Notes: a model not told the origin generated them from the sequence alone. Numbered from the stretch's first letter, positions 3,523 to 10,735 are shown. The stretch is DNA of 32,000 nt from Coprobacillaceae bacterium (GCA_963675515.1 OY776328.1:1050001-1082000), one strand, 5' to 3'. Made by a program: numbers and translations.

Positions 3523-5067
3523 ATGGAAAATGAAATTATAGTAGTTCTCGATTTCGGTAGTCAGTACAACCAGCTGATTGCCCGAAGAATCCGGGAATTT
3601 GGGGTTTATTCGGAACTCCACCATCACGATATCACAATTGACAAATTGAAATCATTGGGAACCTTGAAAGGGATTGTCCTTTCAGGTGGACCTAACAGCG
3701 TCTATGACAAGGATGCATTGCACTGCGACCCTGAAATCTTCAACCTGGGTGTGCCGGTGCTTGGGATCTGTTATGGGATGCAATACACCCACTATAATCT
3801 GGGTGGCGATGTAAAAGCCTGCGAACATAAGGAATACGGTGCGGCCGACATCACTGTCGAAGTTGCCAGCCCATTGCTTAAAGGGTTGCCTGAAACTCAG
3901 ACAGTCTGGATGTCGCATGGTGACCAGGTAAGCAAACTGGCTCCTGGATTCGAAAAAGTGGCTTATTCTAAGACATGTGAATTCGCTGTGGCTCAAAATC
4001 TTGAAAGACAGATTTTCACGGTCCAATTCCATCCGGAAGTGCGTCACTCGGTATATGGAAATGATATCCTTAAAAACTTCGTTTTCGAAATCTGCCAATG
4101 TAAAGGGAACTGGTCGATGCATAATTTCATCGAACAGAAAATCTCGGAAATCAAAGCCAAAGTCGGAGATGACAATGTCCTGCTTGCCCTTTCAGGTGGG
4201 GTTGACTCTTCAGTAGTTGCGGCCCTGTTGCACGAAGCAATCGGAGACCAGTTGTACTGCATGTTCATCGACCATGGACTTTTAAGAAAAGGTGAAGCTG
4301 AATCGGTAATGGAAATGTTCAGTGAAAACATGAGCATCAACGTTACCAAAATCGATGCCAAGGAACGTTTCATGGCCAAGTTAAAAGGCGTCAGCGATCC
4401 TGAAAAGAAACGCAAAATCATCGGAAACGAATTCGTCTACACATTCGACGAGGAAGTTAAGAAACTGACTCAAGGGCACAATATCAAATGGCTCGCTCAA
4501 GGGACACTTTATACCGATGTCATCGAATCGGGAACCAAAACTGCCCAAACGATCAAATCGCATCACAATGTCGGAGGACTTCCTGAAGACATGCAGTTCG
4601 AATTGATCGAACCATTGAACACCCTGTTCAAGGATGAAGTCCGTGCTTTGGGAATCGAACTTGGATTGCCTGAATCGATGGTATGGCGTCAGCCTTTCCC
4701 AGGACCAGGACTTGGTATCAGGGTATTGGGTGAAATCACTGAAGAAAAGCTGAAGATCGTCCGCGATTCAGATCTGATCCTGCGTGAGGAAATCGCCGCT
4801 GCCGGACTGGAACGCGACATCTGGCAATACTTCACTTGCTTGCCTGACATCCGTTCAGTCGGAGTAATGGGTGATCAAAGAACATACGATTACACTATCG
4901 CCATCCGTGCGGTAACTTCAATCGATGGGATGACCAGCGACTGGGCTAAAATCCCGTTTGAAGTACTCAACAAAATTTCAGTAAGAATCGTCAATGAAGT
5001 GGCGCATATCAACCGCGTAGTCTATGACATCACTTCTAAACCACCTGCAACAATCGAGTGGGAATAA
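3523..5067 (+). CDS. guaA: GMP synthase (glutamine-hydrolysing)
   Basis: It has an N-terminal class I GATase domain ([14 protein letters not shown]), an ATP-PPase motif (SGGVDSSV) and the C-terminal PPATIEWE. An AAGGAG RBS is present. The gene starts 10 nt after the purA stop. Confidence 0.97.
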
Positions 5068-5075
5068 TATATTCT

Positions 5076-5107
5076 AAAGTCTCTGCACATGTGCAAAGAC
5101 TTTTTTG
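5076..5107 (+). terminator. intrinsic terminator after guaA
   Basis: AAAGTCTcTGCACATGTGCAaAGACTTT stem-loop followed by a T-run (5101-5106). Confidence 0.8.
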
Positions 5108-5241
5108 TTGGGTAATCAAGCTGAAGTGGAAGTCTATGTTCTTTTCATCACATAATCGTATCATCCAAATATTGCCATATCAATTTCAAAATCGTGAATA
5201 AGGGTATATAATTGTGGTATATGAAAGGAGATGTTCAAGTC

Positions 5242-5544
5242 ATGAGCGCAACATCCAATTACCAGGACCAAGCAAACGAGTTGCTGGTACTTCTACGGGA
5301 AAAATATAATTTTTCAGAAGGTGACACTTTTCTAGGCATCAAGACGGCTGAGGATTTCAGTGAGGATCCATATGCGGAATTGGTGAATATTCTCGCTCAC
5401 AAGGAAACCGCAAAAAGCGACCAAGTAAATCATTTCATTGAAGATTTTCATCGACTTTCCGGAAAATCGCTGGCAGAGATTGATGAAGAAGAACCGGCCG
5501 CCTATGAGGCAATGTTAAATGCTTTCAAGAAACTGATTGAATGA
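5242..5544 (+). CDS. small acidic hypothetical protein (about 100 aa)
   Basis: An AAAGGAG RBS (5224-5230) sits upstream of ATG 5242, and a strong terminator follows the ORF. I do not recognise a family with confidence; it has a vague resemblance to DUF1128/UPF0435-type small proteins. Confidence 0.6.
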   Translation: MSATSNYQDQANELLVLLREKYNFSEGDTFLGIKTAEDFSEDPYAELVNILAHKETAKSDQVNHFIEDFHRLSGKSLAEIDEEEPAAYEAMLNAFKKLIE

Positions 5545-5612
5545 TACAGTTTGCCATCCCGATATGGCTTGGATTTGATAATCATTGTAAACTTTTGAGT
5601 GGGAATTGGTGA

Positions 5613-5654
5613 AACTCCAGAACATTGAACCTTGGTGTTCTGGAGTTTTTATTT
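5613..5654 (+). terminator. intrinsic terminator
   Basis: AACTCCAGAACA...TGTTCTGGAGTT stem followed by TTTTATTTT. Confidence 0.85.
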
Positions 5655-5767
5655 TAAAACTATTCATTGGCGTAGGGTGAATTGGCAACAATCCTCCGAA
5701 TAATCAAACTGTTGTTGATCCGTATATATAATGTTGAATAACGTATTTTTATATGGGGTTTAACAAT

Positions 5768-5937
5768 ATGATATGTCGAGATTGTGGAGCAAATGTTAAC
5801 AAAGATGAAATTCAAGGGAACGCCCTGAATGTGGTTTTTACAAACTCAAATCGTATTACCCTGTCTTGAAGAAGGGAATGTGGCCTTTCTTGTTTGCCTT
5901 CAAAGCACAGCTGCGGGTTCATGCTGTCAACTTATAG
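5768..5937 (+). pseudogene. possible remnant of a zinc-ribbon membrane protein gene (frameshifted)
   Basis: ATG 5768 reads MICRDCGANVNKDEIQG... and stops at 5867. The -1 frame from about 5815 reads ERPECGFYKLKSYYPVLKKGMWPFLFAFKAQL... and stops at TAG 5935-5937. The CxxC...(R)PECG pattern looks like a degraded double-Cys zinc ribbon. Confidence 0.3.
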
Positions 5938-5947
5938 TCCAGTATGA

Positions 5948-5972
5948 ACTTCTAGTCCACTGGACCAGAAGT
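5948..5972. repeat. 25-nt imperfect palindrome, copy 1 (ACTTCTAGTCCA-C-TGGACCAGAAGT)
   Basis: Read directly from the sequence. The arms pair 11/12 with a conserved A/C mismatch. It lies 21 nt outside the 3' end of the TetR gene. No T-tract is present on either side. Confidence 0.9.
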
Positions 5973-5993
5973 GATAGCAATCACATAAAATAA

Positions 5994-6563
5994 TTAGAAT
6001 ATAAATCCAGAATTTTCTACAATAAGAAACTGCTTGGTAAGAATTGAAATAAGTTCTTCGGCAGTTTCTTTTTTACCGCCTTTAAACCACGCTTGGAACA
6101 TTCCAACAAACACCCCAATTCGACTTGATAGAAAGTAATTATATTCAAGTGTTGGAAGCTCGATTTTAGAATTAATATAATCCATAACGATGTCCGCATG
6201 ATTGATAAAGGAATTGAATATAATGTCTATTCGCCCCTGTGCGATTAGGATTTCTAAAATATCTGTATGTTCCATCCAAAAGGAGAAGACGTAGGTAATC
6301 AAGCTGTTTTGATCTTCAAGCGATGGCTTGGATTCTACATAGCTTGATAAAACCTGACCAAATAACTGGTCGCATTTCCAGTATAAAATATCAATCACAA
6401 TATCAAAATTTCTATAGAAGGTGGCTCTGCTTACTGTGGATTCTTTTGTAATATCAACAATTCTTATTTTATCGAATTCTTTTTCTTCCATACATTTATT
6501 TAGACCCTCGTATAATAACTCCGCAGACTTTTCTGCGCGTAAATCCTCTTTTATATGATACAT
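5994..6563 (-). CDS. TetR/AcrR-family transcriptional regulator
   Basis: The N-terminal HTH (ITKESTVSRATFYRNF) and the 189-aa length fit the family. An AAAGGAGG RBS is present. The gene is divergent from the 6685 gene. Confidence 0.9.
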   Translation of the reverse strand: MYHIKEDLRAEKSAELLYEGLNKCMEEKEFDKIRIVDITKESTVSRATFYRNFDIVIDILYWKCDQLFGQVLSSYVESKPSLEDQNSLITYVFSFWMEHTDILEILIAQGRIDIIFNSFINHADIVMDYINSKIELPTLEYNYFLSSRIGVFVGMFQAWFKGGKKETAEELISILTKQFLIVENSGFIF

Positions 6564-6597
6564 AATGCCTCCTTTTGTCTTGTATTATGTGAGAATA

Positions 6598-6626
6598 TTG
6601 ACTTGTAAAAATAATTATGATACATT
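6598..6626 (+). promoter_or_regulatory. candidate sigma-A promoter for the 6685 gene with a flanking inverted repeat (possible TetR operator)
   Basis: TTGACT (6598-6603), a 17-nt spacer, then TACATT (6621-6626) preceded by TG. TGTATTAT (6581-6588) and ATGATACA (6617-6624) form a 7/8 inverted repeat whose right arm overlaps the -10. Confidence 0.4.
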
Positions 6627-6684
6627 TTTCGCATAACAAGAACACAAAACACAATAACATATTTTTTTATAGGAGGCAAGAACC

Positions 6685-7431
6685 ATGTCAAAAACAAAAG
6701 AAACCTACGTAAAGAATTTAGAAAGATTAAGAAAGCAGAGACTCATTGCAAGAGATGCTTTATTTGCAGCAGGAAAGCCAGAGTTTAAAAGAGAGAGCTC
6801 TGCAAAGTGGGCTGACTTTACCTGCGATGAGAAGGGGAGATTAATTGCAAGTGTACAGCATGATGATGTAGCAGACTGCACACCAGAAATGATTCAATGG
6901 TTTTTTGAGCATTTAGGATGTTGCACAACTTGGAATGGTGTTGATTTCTCAGGACCTGAGGTATCGATTTATCATTTATGGCATCATAGAGATCATGTTG
7001 CAGTTACTCCACTAACAGGGACAGGCAAGAAAGAAAATTTAGGATTTGTCCAAGGTGGCAAATCTAGAATTCATGAGTTAACCAATGAAATGAATGATGT
7101 TATTTATTATGAGATGGAAACGGTATGCTTAGATACATATGAATTTACGTTCAATGTTATGAAGAATGGAAAAGCAACTGGTCATGTAAAACATGTATAT
7201 GAATCTAATGGTAAAGGTGGAAGTACATTTTATGCTGAAACAAGAGTTGGCGTAGAGGAAGGCGGATTTATCAATAAAGTGTTAGTCCCAAGACTGTATT
7301 CTAAGCAAGCTGGAATGGAGTGGATTCACCATAATATTCAAGAGACAGGAAGAATGCAGGATATACTTCCAGTTCTCTATGCTAATCAGGATAAGGTATT
7401 TTTTGATAAGGATTTCATTATGTTTGATTAG
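6685..7431 (+). CDS. hypothetical protein, possibly DAPG/phloretin hydrolase (PhlG-like) family
   Basis: A strong AGGAGG RBS supports the CDS. The function call rests on motifs PEMIQWFFEHL and YHLWHHRDH, which resemble the W-W-F and WHP-DH region I remember from the PhlG/Phy C-C hydrolase family. That call is tentative. Confidence 0.5.
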   Translation: MSKTKETYVKNLERLRKQRLIARDALFAAGKPEFKRESSAKWADFTCDEKGRLIASVQHDDVADCTPEMIQWFFEHLGCCTTWNGVDFSGPEVSIYHLWHHRDHVAVTPLTGTGKKENLGFVQGGKSRIHELTNEMNDVIYYEMETVCLDTYEFTFNVMKNGKATGHVKHVYESNGKGGSTFYAETRVGVEEGGFINKVLVPRLYSKQAGMEWIHHNIQETGRMQDILPVLYANQDKVFFDKDFIMFD

Positions 7432-7463
7432 ATGAATTCAAATAGAAAATGAAGGTGATTCTT

Positions 7464-8124
7464 ATGGAGAAAATAATCAAGGGATGGCTTAGCTGCTGGC
7501 TATATGTTATTACACTGGTAGCAGGAATTATTATTGGAATAACAATTGTAAACTGGAATGATTGGAGCATGCTGACAAAATTATTTGCATTTGCAACAGC
7601 GCTGCTTCCTATTCATGTATTAGAAGAATGGCATTTTCCAGGTGGATTTCATGTAATGTACAATTATCTTGAAAAATCAGATGCATTAGACCGATATCCT
7701 ATGAATCAATTTACTGATATGATTACGAATTTTATTGGTGTAATATTTGGATGTGCGGTGTTAATAGTAGGTGTTACGCCTATTACGGCAATTATGCAGT
7801 GCCTGATGTGTTTTGGAGAAATTATAGCGCATACAAAATCAGGATATACAATGAAAAAGCTCTTAGTTAATGGAGGAAAAAAAAACCATATATAATCCTG
7901 GGCTTGCAACATCGCTATGTGGATATTTACCTATATTGATTGGATTATTATATAGCTTAGTGAAAGAGAATCAGACGACAGCAATGGATATTATCCTGGC
8001 TATTGTTTGTGGAGCGGTATTAATGGCTCTTGCACTCCCTGTTCCAGAAAAATTATTTAAGAGTAAGAAAACACCATATGAATATGGTTGGGGAAATGGA
8101 TATTTTTCCAAGTATCTATCATAG
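7464..8124 (+). pseudogene. HXXEE-domain membrane protein split by a frameshift in an A9 tract (7877-7885)
   Basis: The IHVLEEW (HXXEE) motif lies within a multi-TM protein. ORF 7449-7895 (frame 0) and ORF 7870-8124 (frame 1) overlap at GGAGG-AAAAAAAAA-CC. Removing one A gives a continuous ...NGGKKTIYNPGLATSL... product of about 219 aa. An AAGGTGA RBS precedes ATG 7464. Confidence 0.7.
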
Positions 8125-8133
8125 GGTAATATA

Positions 8134-8158
8134 ACTTCTAGTCCAGTGGACCAGAAGT
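8134..8158. repeat. 25-nt imperfect palindrome, copy 2 (ACTTCTAGTCCA-G-TGGACCAGAAGT)
   Basis: It is 24/25 identical to copy 1 in direct orientation; only the central base differs. With the flanking A and G the match extends to 27 nt (5947-5973 vs 8133-8159). It starts 9 nt after the HXXEE stop codon. Confidence 0.9.
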
Positions 8159-8343
8159 GGACTTAATTATCAGTGAAGTAACAATTGGGCCATAGGGTGC
8201 TAGACATCCAGTGGATGTCTGTTTAGCACGGACTGAAGCGGAGCGAAGAGGATACCCTAACGCGGACGACATAGGAGTACGGAATTATTTGCGTAAATTG
8301 CTATGCAACTTTAGGCGTATCCTAGTCATATCTTTGTATAGTA

Positions 8344-8820
8344 TTGATAACACGTGGAGTTGCAATTGAAATCAACTCCGTCAGTTCTATTCTTTACAAT
8401 TTTGCTTTCCCGAAAGAGCGAATCATATATGATAATATCAGACAGATTTTTGTGGTCTTGTACATATCGTTTTCAGGTGCATATTTCATTCCTTTGATTT
8501 TTGACCTGGTTTATGAGAAAATCGGTTATTATCCACTAATGTTGAACGATATCCTCAAGGTGAATGAGGGTCCAAAATCCTGTGCTTTCATAGATGAAGT
8601 TAAAACCGGAAAGTGGATCGGAATTTTCGAAAGAGTGATGATTATGATTTTTCTGTTTTCCAATCAGCTTTCCTCAATCGGTTTTGTGATTGCAGCGAAA
8701 TCACTTGCCCGATTCAAATTATTGGAAAATAAAATATTTGCTGAATACTATTTGTTAGGAACATTGTTCAGTGTTGTATATAGTTTTGTCTGGTATGGCA
8801 TATTTCAAAAAATATTGTAA
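8344..8820 (+). CDS. membrane protein resembling the C-terminal half of DUF3307 proteins; probably 5'-truncated
   Basis: KWIGIFERVMIMIFLF...IGFVIAAKSLARFKLLENKIFAEYYLLGTLFS resembles the remembered DUF3307 core. The ORF starts at a TTG with no RBS, is preceded by in-frame stops, and lacks the N-terminal HxxxDF-type motif I remember for this family. Confidence 0.45.
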   Translation: MITRGVAIEINSVSSILYNFAFPKERIIYDNIRQIFVVLYISFSGAYFIPLIFDLVYEKIGYYPLMLNDILKVNEGPKSCAFIDEVKTGKWIGIFERVMIMIFLFSNQLSSIGFVIAAKSLARFKLLENKIFAEYYLLGTLFSVVYSFVWYGIFQKIL

Positions 8821-8852
8821 ATGACTCAAATATAATTTGGCATTAACTTAAG

Positions 8853-8878
8853 CCGACTTATAATATGTCGGTATTTGT
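8853..8878 (+). terminator. hairpin terminator after the 8344-8820 ORF
   Basis: CCGAC-ttataatat-GTCGG followed by TATTTGT. The stem is short. Confidence 0.45.
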
Positions 8879-8935
8879 CAATATAGTTGACGCATTTTTT
8901 TGATTTCAATTATGCAAATTATTGAGTTGTGCTTG

Positions 8936-10012
8936 TTAAACTTCGTTGATCAATAATTCGCTTTCTTTTGTCGGATTCAAGGCAACTGCTTCAATCCGAG
9001 ACCAGTCTCTGGTTGATCCACTCCATCTTTCCGGGCTCCTCATTTTCGCTTCCTCATACACTTCTTTCCTTTTTTGCAGTATCGCAACATCTTCGCCCCG
9101 ATGACGACTGGCTGGTGTCACATATTTGATTCCGCTGTGTAAGTGAATTTCGTTGTACCAATTGACAAATTCATTGACCCAGCTTCTCGCGTGTGTGATC
9201 GATTCAAAACCGCTTGTAGGGTACTTTGGCATATATTTGAATGTCCTAAACAACGATTCAGAATATGGATTATCGTTGCTTACCCGGGGCCTAGAAAATG
9301 AGCTTTGCACACCAAGATTCTCGAGCATCCCCAGAAATGTGGCTGCCTTCATCGGACCACCGTTATCGGAGTGCAAGACCAGCGGTTCACCATTGACTCG
9401 TTCACTTAAAAGTGCGCGTTGCATCAGTGTCGCGGAATATTCAGCGTTTTCCGTCTCCCATACTTCGTATCCGACAATTTTGCGACTGAAGATGTCCATT
9501 ATCATGTATAGCTTGTAATAGATTCCTCGGATATCCTTGCGGTGCAACCAAGTGATGTCCCAACTCCAAACTTGGTTCGGTTTGATTGCAACATGGGTGG
9601 TGGCTTGTCTGTGGTGCTTCGGGGCTGTACGGCCACGATGTTTCAATTGTTTTAATTCTCTTAATAGACGGTAGATGGTTGATTCTGAAGCAATATAGAT
9701 TCCTTTGTCCGCCAGTAACGGAACAATCTCAGATGGCGTCAATTGCCTATAATCAGGACTGTTAACTATTCTCATAATAGCTTCGCGTTCTTCATTGCTG
9801 AGCTTATTCTTTGGCGGATTTAGCCGTGGTTCTTTACGCCTATCAGTGGAAATATTGTCTTCTTGAGTCCATCTTTCATACGTCCGTTTCGAAATCCCTG
9901 CCACCTTGCATGCCGGGATCAAGCGGGCACCATTGGCGTTCGCTTCTTTGATTAACGTAACGATTTCTTTGCGCAATTTGAGAGTAGTTAATCTTCCTCG
10001 TTGTCGTCCCAA
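8936..10012 (-). CDS. IS3-family transposase OrfB (DDE/rve integrase core), expressed as an OrfAB fusion by -1 frameshifting
   Basis: OrfB is in the -1 phase relative to OrfA ((10464-10012) mod 3 = 2) and is open from the slippery site. Motifs WSWDITW, HSDNGGPM and DNPYSESLFRTFKY are typical of an IS3 DDE domain. Confidence 0.9.
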   Translation of the reverse strand: MGRQRGRLTTLKLRKEIVTLIKEANANGARLIPACKVAGISKRTYERWTQEDNISTDRRKEPRLNPPKNKLSNEEREAIMRIVNSPDYRQLTPSEIVPLLADKGIYIASESTIYRLLRELKQLKHRGRTAPKHHRQATTHVAIKPNQVWSWDITWLHRKDIRGIYYKLYMIMDIFSRKIVGYEVWETENAEYSATLMQRALLSERVNGEPLVLHSDNGGPMKAATFLGMLENLGVQSSFSRPRVSNDNPYSESLFRTFKYMPKYPTSGFESITHARSWVNEFVNWYNEIHLHSGIKYVTPASRHRGEDVAILQKRKEVYEEAKMRSPERWSGSTRDWSRIEAVALNPTKESELLINEV

Positions 10013-10464
10013 ATTGCCTGGAGCTTTTTTTCAAGAACCAGTAATGCAGCTGCCTCGGCTAATGCCTTTTCCTTGCGGCGCAGTTGTTTTTCCAGCTCTT
10101 TGCGCTTTTGCCGTTCGGCTTGCAAGTCATCGTTTAGAGAATCGGACTTGGTTTCAGGGCTTAAGAATTCCTTCTTCCACTTAACCAACTCATCAGGATG
10201 AATCCCTTTTTTGCGGCAATATTCACCGAGCTCATGTTCACTGAGGGGAGCAGATTCAACGATGAAATGGAAACGTTGTTCCTTGTTGTAGCGTTCTTTG
10301 ATTTTAGAAACTGAATGATTTTTGAGGTATCTTCTTTTCCAAGAATATAGTGTAGTCGTCTTGATGCCGGTTTCTTCAGCAATCTGGACAACGGTCTTGT
10401 TAATCGGTGGTTCAACCTCACTGATGATCTTGATTTTCTCTTCTGTCGTATATGTTTTGGTCAT
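9988..10464 (-). CDS. IS3-family transposase OrfA (HTH, leucine-zipper region)
   Basis: It has an HTH-type N-terminus and a K/E-rich coiled-coil C-terminus, with an AAGGAGA RBS. The frame ends shortly after the slippery A AAA AAG (7 T on the + strand at 10025-10031). Confidence 0.9.
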   Translation of the reverse strand: MTKTYTTEEKIKIISEVEPPINKTVVQIAEETGIKTTTLYSWKRRYLKNHSVSKIKERYNKEQRFHFIVESAPLSEHELGEYCRKKGIHPDELVKWKKEFLSPETKSDSLNDDLQAERQKRKELEKQLRRKEKALAEAAALLVLEKKLQAIWDDNEED

Positions 10465-10705
10465 GGCTAGTTCTCCTTGGTATACTTTTACTAAGTATAA
10501 TCTAAAACGTTCTATACGACAACTATCCTAACACAGGGGGATGTCGTATCTTGAAATCGCATTTCATTTTCATTTGATGGATTGCTAGCGTACATCTGGC
10601 AATGATAAAAGTTTACGTCTGATCTCAATGTATAATAGGAGTTTTTTACTTGATTCAACTCACAATTTATTATCTAATTCATATCAGCATGGAGATCATG
10701 TGATT

Positions 10706-10735
10706 TTGACAAAATGCATTGCCTTGTGATAGACT
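10706..10735 (+). promoter_or_regulatory. candidate sigma-A promoter of the pab operon
   Basis: TTGACA (10706-10711), an 18-nt spacer with TG at 10727-10728, then TAGACT (10730-10735). It lies about 70 nt upstream of the pabA ATG. Confidence 0.5.

Follow-up and report, generated by a model that had tools for sequence, protein, structure and literature searches.

The subject of this analysis is a pair of short repeats in a stretch of 32,000 nucleotides from a Coprobacillaceae bacterium (GCA_963675515.1 OY776328.1:1050001-1082000; hereafter the window), where they enclose three genes, for a TetR-family regulator, a hydrolase and an HXXEE-family membrane protein. The repeat is a palindrome, which we named P, and the window repeats are probably two instances of a widespread 25-nt palindrome that punctuates gene modules in chromosomal elements of the integrative and conjugative (ICE) or integrative and mobilizable (IME) type in gut and rumen Firmicutes. 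Across the loci compared, P is a hairpin under selection that is transcribed and stands at gene borders of mobile elements, and it is the exact junction where unrelated modules meet. Modules lying between two copies of P are present in some loci and are represented by one hybrid P in close relatives, and P carries a U-tract, as a classical terminator does, in about one third of its contexts.

The two window copies are in direct orientation and follow the pattern AACTTCTAGTCCA[C/G]TGGACCAGAAGTG. Over their 27 nt the sole difference is the central base; the 25-mer core, ACTTCTAGTCCA-N-TGGACCAGAAGT, has C as its centre at 5948-5972 and G at 8134-8158.

5947-5973, plus strand: left copy of P, AACTTCTAGTCCACTGGACCAGAAGTG, read from the sequence; its minus-strand RNA corresponds to the TetR sense strand
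8133-8159, plus strand: right copy of P, AACTTCTAGTCCAGTGGACCAGAAGTG, the opening part of a composite of P and a conserved element of about 80 nt

Chance matches of the repeat were absent from 100 dinucleotide-preserving shuffles, so the pair reported in a preliminary description of this DNA is real. That description had also remarked on an arm asymmetry (TAG versus CAG) common to both copies, on their placement 21 nt past the TetR stop and 9 nt past the end of the HXXEE frame (8124), and on the lack of a T-tract; the sequence and coordinates bear out each of these observations, and neither copy was called as a terminator-like site. When the minus strand is folded, the A/C mismatch of the window copies becomes a G·U pair and a perfect 11-bp stem results, with a folding energy of -15.4 kcal/mol as compared with -11.6 to -12.3 kcal/mol for the plus strand (z-scores of the stems, -2.2 to -4.2). 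The left copy therefore fits the sense-strand pattern described below, as it is perfect on the TetR sense strand. The right copy does not fit it, which suggests that this copy arose by copying at the DNA level rather than by evolution in place.

P is not confined to the window. A scan of one genome per species with CTTCTRGTCCANTGGACYAGAAG returned 23 loci in at least 10 genera, chiefly rumen and gut Lachnospiraceae, with one to four exact-pattern copies per genome, and a looser pattern returned at least 120 loci from rumen and human-gut metagenomes. Together these 143 P loci hold at least 173 copies of P in at least 125 distinct flank contexts among the matches listed. In the genomes scanned, P recurs beside mobile-element genes and, at one to four copies per genome, is not there the ubiquitous element of the repetitive extragenic palindrome (REP) type that the preliminary description entertained as an alternative. 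The consensus is a perfect palindrome, A-CTTnTGGTCCA-N-TGGACCAnAAG-T, and individual copies span 25-29 nt and are mostly perfect, with 12-bp arms around one variable central base; the G->A change of the window copies is one among several transition variants. A flanking A (110 of 125 contexts) and a flanking T (106 of 125) are conserved although the search pattern constrained neither, and the flanks otherwise show only a weak symmetric T.A extension, with a downstream consensus T-n-A. Degenerate variants add a few more copies of P per locus, and related hairpins with compensatory arm changes cluster beside it, such as ACTTGTGCTCCACTGGAGCACAAGT (L014, L018), in groups of two to four (L014, L018, L071). 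No copy was found in viral contigs, and neither the P 33-mer nor the composite of P and the element had a true match among 72,556 PLSDB plasmids. A literature search with the P sequence returned unrelated primers only, a search on palindromes that border ICE modules brought up CRISPR matches alone, and a paper on the leading region does not mention hairpins or palindromes (PMC11541004).

Clustering of open reading frames (ORFs) and Pfam assignment around P revealed mobile-element genes, including those for a Tn916-type integrase, RepA_N/DUF6017 and IstB-like proteins, ArdC-type anti-restriction proteins, AbiEii/AbiEi pairs, a MobA/VirD2 relaxase, and HNH, GIY-YIG and macro-domain proteins, as well as a tet(M)-like gene in L144. 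P is intergenic, within a few tens of nucleotides of stop or start codons: many copies lie 10-36 nt upstream of the next start inside operons, and others lie a few nucleotides from a stop. In some loci P parts small genes into arrays, with four copies 464-1651 nt apart in L113 and three in each of L009 and L056; in L056 and L144 a MobA/VirD2 relaxase gene follows the P arrays at a distance of 3-5 kb. One module that recurs, about 4-5 kb in length, looks like an integrative element and consists of P, the ~80-nt element, an unknown gene of 227-384 aa, in some cases a further P, RepA_N/DUF6017, an IstB-like ATPase and a Tn916-type integrase (L044, L053, L071, L082, L083, L106, L119, L155, L157). 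Its right end is conserved at ...AAAGTATTCCC. This integrase (PF02920 + PF00589) is the sole recurrent integrase, found away from the arrays in 13 of the 143 loci, and P was discarded as its att site because the integrase-proximal end, ...AAAGTATTCCC, is without P. A Pfam scan of 140 representatives of the neighbouring genes gave, among the best 25 listed, no recurrent recombinase except two IS66 transposases.

Double changes that keep pairing were enriched at arm pair 4/20 (G-C, 8 against 1.25 expected; A-T, 4 against 0.3 expected), and we therefore conclude that the palindromy of P, and with it the hairpin, is under selection. The strand on which this selection acts was assessed in 75 distinct flank combinations with unambiguous gene direction, to which the copies had been collapsed. 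Where a copy carried a single transition mismatch, the strand able to form a G·U pair was the sense strand in 31 cases versus 9 (p=7e-4). Moreover, a T-rich tail was present in 44 of 125 contexts and lay on the sense strand 20 times versus 6 (p=0.009). Because selection acts on the sense strand, P is transcribed, and because both the G·U-capable strand and the T-tracts are biased in this way, the data point to a role for P in the transcript, as a terminator or as a hairpin at the 3' end or between cistrons, and not to one in a DNA strand that is transferred. A perfect bidirectional-terminator version of P, with A6/T6 flanks, is found in L014 (6910-6956). The preliminary description had proposed a strand-specific hairpin of single-stranded DNA; given the strand preference of wobble variants and T-tracts, an RNA hairpin fits better.

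In an all-against-all BLAST comparison of the loci, 184 of 2070 alignment end-points fell within +-15 nt of the edges of P, approximately 8 times the local background. Clustering of the 150-nt sides of P yielded 123 side families in 84 side-side combinations, and 23 of these families were joined through P to between two and nine different partners. Three pairs of occupied and empty sites were also identified. L056, L057 and L009 are occupied, in the arrangement P-1.6 kb-P-0.45 kb-P, and the corresponding position in L144 holds a single hybrid P between flanks that are 95-98% identical; in this hybrid, the left-arm variant and the left flank are those of the first copy and the right flank is that of the third. 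Likewise, a single P in L091 corresponds to P-1.66 kb-P in L117, and a single P in L043 to P-464 bp-P in L113. Inversions of segments between P pairs, which a symmetric recombinase site would lead one to expect, were absent among the loci compared. The preliminary description had suggested that hairpins at both ends let the cargo move as a unit and that empty sites should be sought; the breakpoints at P and the three pairs at other loci sustain the general idea and supply such sites, while the families of elements named there do not hold (see below) and no relative provided an empty site at the window locus. It had also allowed that close relatives might carry the same three genes at this locus without the repeats. 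Relatives that share guaA are without the cassette, and homologs of its genes lie elsewhere, without the repeat.

Between L143 (5523-5527) and L048 (6588-9290), a 2.7-kb deletion runs from the edge of P into a gene for a 1197-aa helicase, with a 5-nt AGAAG microhomology, and exemplifies illegitimate deletion at the palindrome edge. A group II intron was considered for this indel in L048 and ruled out, as the deletion lies inside the helicase gene and there is no inserted element.

We propose that recombination within or at P, through short homology or break-induced joining with host functions, would swap, insert and delete P-bounded modules, and that the same process would keep the sequence of P homogeneous. 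Exchange at this site is inferred because the identical 25-mer stands at many borders and because perfect palindromes tend to break as hairpins or cruciforms; the data can be explained without a dedicated enzyme, though one may exist. Several points weigh against this interpretation. A homology of 25 bp is short for efficient RecA recombination, and homologous exchange by itself does not account for more than 80 new combinations of P and flank. Some indels border on a single P (L153, L101). The counts are drawn from related loci that are not fully independent even after collapse to distinct flank combinations, and the search pattern favours conserved copies, so that part of the sequence conservation is ascertainment. 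As for the window, a U-tract is absent from both copies, and in the right copy the A·C mismatch falls on the strand that is sense for both adjoining genes, the unfavoured orientation, which makes an RNA role for that copy doubtful. Finally, the relatives share guaA and pabA and none shares the DNA between them; since no empty allele of the window cassette was found, its mobility is argued by analogy with the other loci.

The exchange of modules at P could instead be the work of a dedicated cassette system, integron-like or Xer/pdif-like, for which P would be the recombination site: an enzyme encoded elsewhere in the element or the genome would insert and excise circular P-carrying cassettes at P and thereby yield co-oriented arrays of units made up of a gene and P. 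We consider this rather unlikely, and equally so the wider proposal that P serves for recombination in a cassette system not described before, located in those accessory regions (establishment or anti-defence) that integrative and conjugative elements of Firmicutes carry. If true, P-tagged single genes and small operons would be captured, shuffled and excised by the dedicated enzyme and, together with the leader element downstream of P, would form a Gram-positive integron-like platform for gene capture on mobile elements. Such a system would account for the arrays in which single small genes are each followed by P (four in L113, three in L009 and L056), for the exactly one hybrid P kept at empty sites, for the many partners joined to P, for conservation of sequence and not of structure alone, down to the unconstrained flanking A and T, and for the occurrence of the cassette genes elsewhere without P. 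It is not easily reconciled with the lack of any recombinase that recurs beside P, the Tn916-type integrase being present in 13 of 143 loci and the other end of its element lacking P, nor with the absence of inversions that a symmetric site should permit. The 1-nt centre of P fits neither the 6-8-bp spacer of tyrosine recombinases nor the 2-bp spacer of serine recombinases, the sense-strand bias points to RNA, and some indels touch only one P. At the other extreme, it is unlikely that both window copies are plain terminator hairpins inherited with the adjoining DNA and that the P-bounded deletions reflect ordinary direct-repeat slippage. This simpler explanation draws on the sense-strand T-tract present in about one third of contexts, the sense bias of the wobble variants, the existence of perfect bidirectional terminators (L014) and the deletion that leaves a P edge by microhomology. 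However, ordinary terminators are not kept at 22-25 of 25 nt over at least 125 contexts and in more than a few bacterial families, P shows an enrichment of mosaic breakpoints of about 8-fold, more than half of all copies, both window copies included, are without a T-tract, and many copies stand 10-36 nt upstream of a start codon within operons. The same rare G->A variant in both window copies also marks them as copies of one another.

Two further explanations are less probable still. In one, which we consider improbable, P is a hairpin of the origin-of-transfer (oriT) type recognised by a relaxase, and initiation at one direct copy with termination at the other would transfer or excise the segment between them; relaxase-mediated site-specific recombination of this kind is known for RSA/Pre of staphylococcal plasmids. 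At 10 loci P does lie 28-33 nt upstream of a gene for a 560-590-aa protein with an HxDExxPHxH motif, in units of a small Rep and a Mob-like protein; L015 has P again after the stop of that gene, and arrays of P precede MobA/VirD2 relaxase genes as described above (L056, L144). The Mob-like protein is without a Pfam match, though, its identity as a relaxase being a motif seen by eye, and P accompanies different relaxase types or none. Nor are three or four copies per array like an oriT, no conserved nick-site sequence follows P, and the wobble bias falls on the sense strand and not on the transferred strand, under the assumed usual gene orientation of leading regions. Very improbable, finally, is a transposase-less derivative of IS200/IS605 (a palindrome-associated transposable element, PATE) or a unit of the type spread by REP-associated tyrosine transposases (REP/RAYT), mobilised in trans by a Y1 HUH transposase. 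Two near-identical direct hairpins near the ends of the cargo, with the same mismatch in each, had suggested it. Peel-and-paste excision would take both hairpins, whereas empty sites keep one P; the consensus P is perfect, and copies with other transition variants exist beside the one that gives the mismatch; there are only one to four copies per genome, and no conserved tetranucleotide lies beside the hairpin. A phmmer search of six-frame ORFs from 158 loci and the window, with a TnpA-like probe, matched a Y1 (HUH) transposase in L043 only (1 of 143 P loci), 8.6 kb from P, and found none in the window and none adjoining any P.

Several proteins and loci near P deserve separate mention. The ~570-aa protein with the HxDExxPHxH motif is encoded beside a Rep-like gene in L015 (1606-3327), with homologs in L005, L016, L019, L020 and L145, and has P in the 5' leader of its gene; no Pfam match was obtained at 1e-3, and from its motif the protein may represent a relaxase family not yet classified. 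The minus strand of L117 (781-1923), L081 (504-1643) and L135 (4083-5138) encodes a 380-aa RNase III-like protein (PF14622, PF00636, dsrm), inside a P-bounded module and adjoining the composite of P and the element; this enzyme could process the hairpins. Some ORFs run through P because one frame of the palindrome is open, and end in a sequence of the '...TSGPMDQKL' type (L009, 1853-3190 and 3183-3521; L135, 1704-2858; L147, 4212-4604); these C-termini and the apparent gene overlaps are likely annotation artefacts. L017 (Thermoguttaceae bacterium LCP21S3_D1) and L022 (Bariatricus sp. HCP28S3_D3) are 99.6% identical over 5.5 kb, on contigs with ParA/ParB, RepA_N and a type I restriction-modification system. 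They are assigned to a planctomycete and a Lachnospiraceae isolate, respectively, of the same isolate series, and their identity indicates contamination or very recent transfer.

The remaining features of the window around the two copies of P are as follows.

5068-10700, strand not applicable: variable island between guaA (stop at 5067) and a pabA-like glutamine amidotransferase (GATase) gene (10786), low in G+C except for the insertion sequence
5769-5870, plus strand: short CxxC ORF, MICRDCGANVNKDEIQGN..., a possible zinc-ribbon remnant, from frame translation only
5930-5942, plus strand: orphan half-palindrome, ACTTATAGTCCAG, read from the sequence
5994-6563, minus strand: TetR-family regulator (Pfam TetR_C_8, 1.8e-5; weak TetR_N)
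6685-7431, plus strand: DAPG-hydrolase (PhlG)-like protein (weak Pfam PF18089 match; homologs)
7449-8124, plus strand: HXXEE-family membrane protein gene, frameshifted, in two ORFs (7449-7895 and 7870-8124)
8202-8220, plus strand: second hairpin, AGACATCCAGTGGATGTCT, read from the sequence and folded
8250-8322, plus strand: core of the conserved structured element, GGATACCCTAACGCGGACGACATAGGAGTACGG...GCGTATCCT (BLAST extent 8237-8330)
8332-8820, plus strand: 5'-truncated DUF3307 gene (homologs of about 269 aa with PF11750)
8876-10533, minus strand: IS3-family insertion sequence (orfA 9988-10464, orfB 8936-10012; Pfam HTH_Tnp_1, rve/rve_3)

The half-palindrome ACTTATAGTCCAG, 5 nt before the left copy, resembles the left arm and centre of P, and L003 has a comparable hybrid or half hairpin. 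On the right, the hairpin at 8202-8220 has the centre TCCAGTGGA in common with P.

Pfam and homologs uphold the identities of the three cassette genes as first called (TetR, PhlG-like hydrolase, HXXEE), and by Pfam the cassette holds only these, in keeping with the earlier remark that no transposase or integrase lies inside it. For the HXXEE gene the identity stands, through the PF13787 gene of L024, and the intact frame does not: a +/-1 frameshift breaks it in a run of about nine A residues at about 7876-7884, and residues 1-142 and 140-219 of the L024 protein align in two different window frames. This frameshift could reflect a pseudogene, a sequencing error or slippage. The cassette carries its own divergent promoter region. 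The hydrolase has 121 homologs, many with PF18089; those in L024 and L025 are 81-83% identical and lie beside TetR genes 60-70% identical to that of the window, and L024 also holds an HXXEE gene. Neither L024 nor L025 has a P-type hairpin at these cassette homologs, where the hairpins that follow stops are ordinary and idiosyncratic, and none of the other P-carrying loci examined has the cassette genes. Since the homologs are without P and the other P loci are without these genes, P belongs to the recipient mobile-element context and not to the cargo.

About one third of P copies, including the right window copy, are followed by the ~80-nt element. Other copies of the element are found in L001 (6186-6285), L018 (7516-7612, minus strand), L071 (1485-1559) and about 45 further loci; in approximately 48 other loci P lies 57-187 nt upstream of the element, and this placement, taken in the element's own orientation and with an operon downstream, holds for nearly all copies of the element. 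Across an alignment of 35 distinct copies, a 5-bp helix covaries around a 9-nt loop that does not vary, GACAURGGA; the element also has a GCRTAAAG...CTTTAYGC hairpin and an outer pairing of GGATAC(G)C...G(C)GTATCC. A UAGGA:UCCUG pairing proposed by RNAalifold was not relied on, as its columns are invariant, and the covarying 5-bp helix was tested instead. Rfam 15 gave no match over the whole window at gathering thresholds and none in 8200-8340 at E<=5. We regard the element as a candidate for an RNA with a leader or regulatory function in these mobile elements.

The GuaA protein of the window groups with proteins named Erysipelotrichaceae, and members of its cluster supplied the relatives for the locus comparison. 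These are 90-92% identical through guaA, carry wholly different DNA at the island, and become similar again at about 10694-10724. Between guaA and the pabA-like gene, L030 has three small ORFs, L031 and L032 have Fic, hexapeptide, PNPOx, ACT and MatE genes, and L029 has a ParA/ParB/giant-helicase element. Because the cargo differs in every relative, the guaA-pabA interval is an integration hotspot. Similarity to the relatives stops at 5067-5082, around a loopless 28-nt palindrome, AAAGTCTCTGCACATGTGCAAAGACTTT, at 5076-5103, 9 nt past the guaA stop. In L031-L038, 56 nt of guaA codons (window 4800-4855) are duplicated about 250 nt downstream of guaA, adjoining the Fic gene, which looks like an att-site duplication.

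The low-G+C tract of the island extends from about 5250 to 8950, with a G+C content of 0.32-0.38 as against 0.45-0.53. The AT-rich composition noted previously is thus present, without being bounded by the palindromes or singling out the cassette. Of the two flanks described as damaged, the right one is: DUF3307 homology begins at residue 108 of about 269, corresponding to window position 8332, so that about 107 codons are lost; the truncation point coincides with the end of the conserved element. The left remnant had been read from the sequence alone, and for the 33-codon CxxC ORF at 5769-5870 no significant similarity was found. The terminal inverted repeats of the IS3 element lie at 8876-8895 and 10514-10533, and megablast of window 5600-8900 against PLSDB and a phage collection gave no match. 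From its sequence, the region around the cassette appears to be a heap of mobile-element fragments. If P punctuates modules as we propose, the TetR, hydrolase and HXXEE genes would constitute one P-bounded module in a decayed mobile-element fragment, in the order half-P, P, module, P, hairpin and cut leader element, and this fragment would have become fused to the truncated DUF3307 gene and IS3 in the guaA-pabA hotspot.

The window cassette would then be one instance of a palindrome-punctuated modular architecture that is more general than the preliminary description could see. P spans at least 125 contexts across Lachnospiraceae and Erysipelotrichaceae and delimits exchangeable units. As an easily searchable 25-mer that marks module borders, it offers a handle on gene acquisition and shuffling in the accessory and anti-defence islands of Gram-positive conjugative elements, and it predicts sites of new cargo such as resistance genes, toxin-antitoxin pairs and anti-restriction genes.

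Comparison with known systems places P apart from the families to which the repeats had been likened. Membership of IS200/IS605 is not supported. In that family the subterminal hairpins are part of the element, so that excision is seamless, and the hairpins are imperfect, with adjoining conserved guide or cleavage tetra- or pentanucleotides; the flanks of P are without these motifs, Y1 matches are confined to one locus, and the three occupied/empty pairs at other loci leave a hybrid P and not a seamless hairpin-free site. REP sequences and bacterial interspersed mosaic elements (BIMEs), like terminator-type pairs of uptake sequences, resemble P as short, sequence-conserved palindromes just past stops, sometimes in clusters of variants; these sequences also act as RNA 3' hairpins and are known hot spots of rearrangement and IS insertion. 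REPs, unlike P, are specific to a species, number hundreds per genome and owe their spread to RAYTs. In the genomes scanned, P occurs at one to four copies per genome across at least 10 genera and more than one family, is tied to mobile-element DNA and has no Y1-type ORF adjoining it, which speaks against a REP/RAYT assignment.

Integrons provide a closer parallel in architecture. Co-oriented arrays in which each single gene is followed by a hairpin-forming site are met with in L113, L009 and L056, cassette loss leaves one hybrid site, the site joins unrelated cargo, and homologs of the cargo exist elsewhere without it. However, attC sites are 55-140 nt long, imperfect and conserved in structure, with R''/L''-L'/R' boxes (R' = GTTRRRY) and extrahelical bases, whereas P is a 25-nt, usually perfect, sequence-conserved palindrome that lacks attC boxes and extrahelical bases and is followed by T-n-A, not GTTRRRY; it is not an attC site as had been suggested. 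No IntI, attI or Pc was seen in the P loci, which are fragments of <=8 to ~14 kb, a distant IntI being beyond their reach. Furthermore, P arrays lie inside ICE/IME-type elements, the window cassette has its own divergent promoter region, and the strand bias of P suggests an RNA role. The pdif modules of Acinetobacter plasmids likewise hold accessory modules, regulator-enzyme and toxin-antitoxin pairs among them, between short conserved dyad-symmetric sites in many contexts. The pdif site differs in its length of 28 bp, in the 6 bp that separate its 11-bp arms, in the conservation of its XerD arm and in its alternating orientation; in P the 12-bp arms enclose one base only, and P is absent from PLSDB plasmids. 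A Xer/dif-type site was rejected, given the single variable central base where a 6-8-bp region would be required and the lack of a dif-like arm (judged by eye against dif consensus sequences).

In lambdoid phages, the boundary sequences where modules join, and likewise RSB in palA/ssoA of staphylococcal plasmids, are crossover points that give rise to mosaics among otherwise unrelated elements. They resemble P as short conserved sequences between functional modules, and differ from it in not being one dispersed perfect palindrome; P, for its part, was not found in viral contigs. For the composite of P and the element, the nearest counterparts are EGeRS1 and EGeRS2 of the pLS20 family, repeated, conserved, structured non-coding sequences that stand upstream of several establishment and anti-defence operons of Gram-positive conjugative elements (PMC8708921), as the composite stands before ArdC-type and replication modules. 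The likeness is one of description: the EGeRS are several hundred nucleotides long, belong to Bacillus plasmids and are not described as recombination junctions (PMC8708921). By analogy, then, the closest functional parallels would be the boundary sequences of mosaic phages, RSB and REP-like terminator palindromes, with EGeRS for the composite. On this reading we would place P among the dispersed palindromic repeats, of the boundary or terminator type, through which modules are exchanged.

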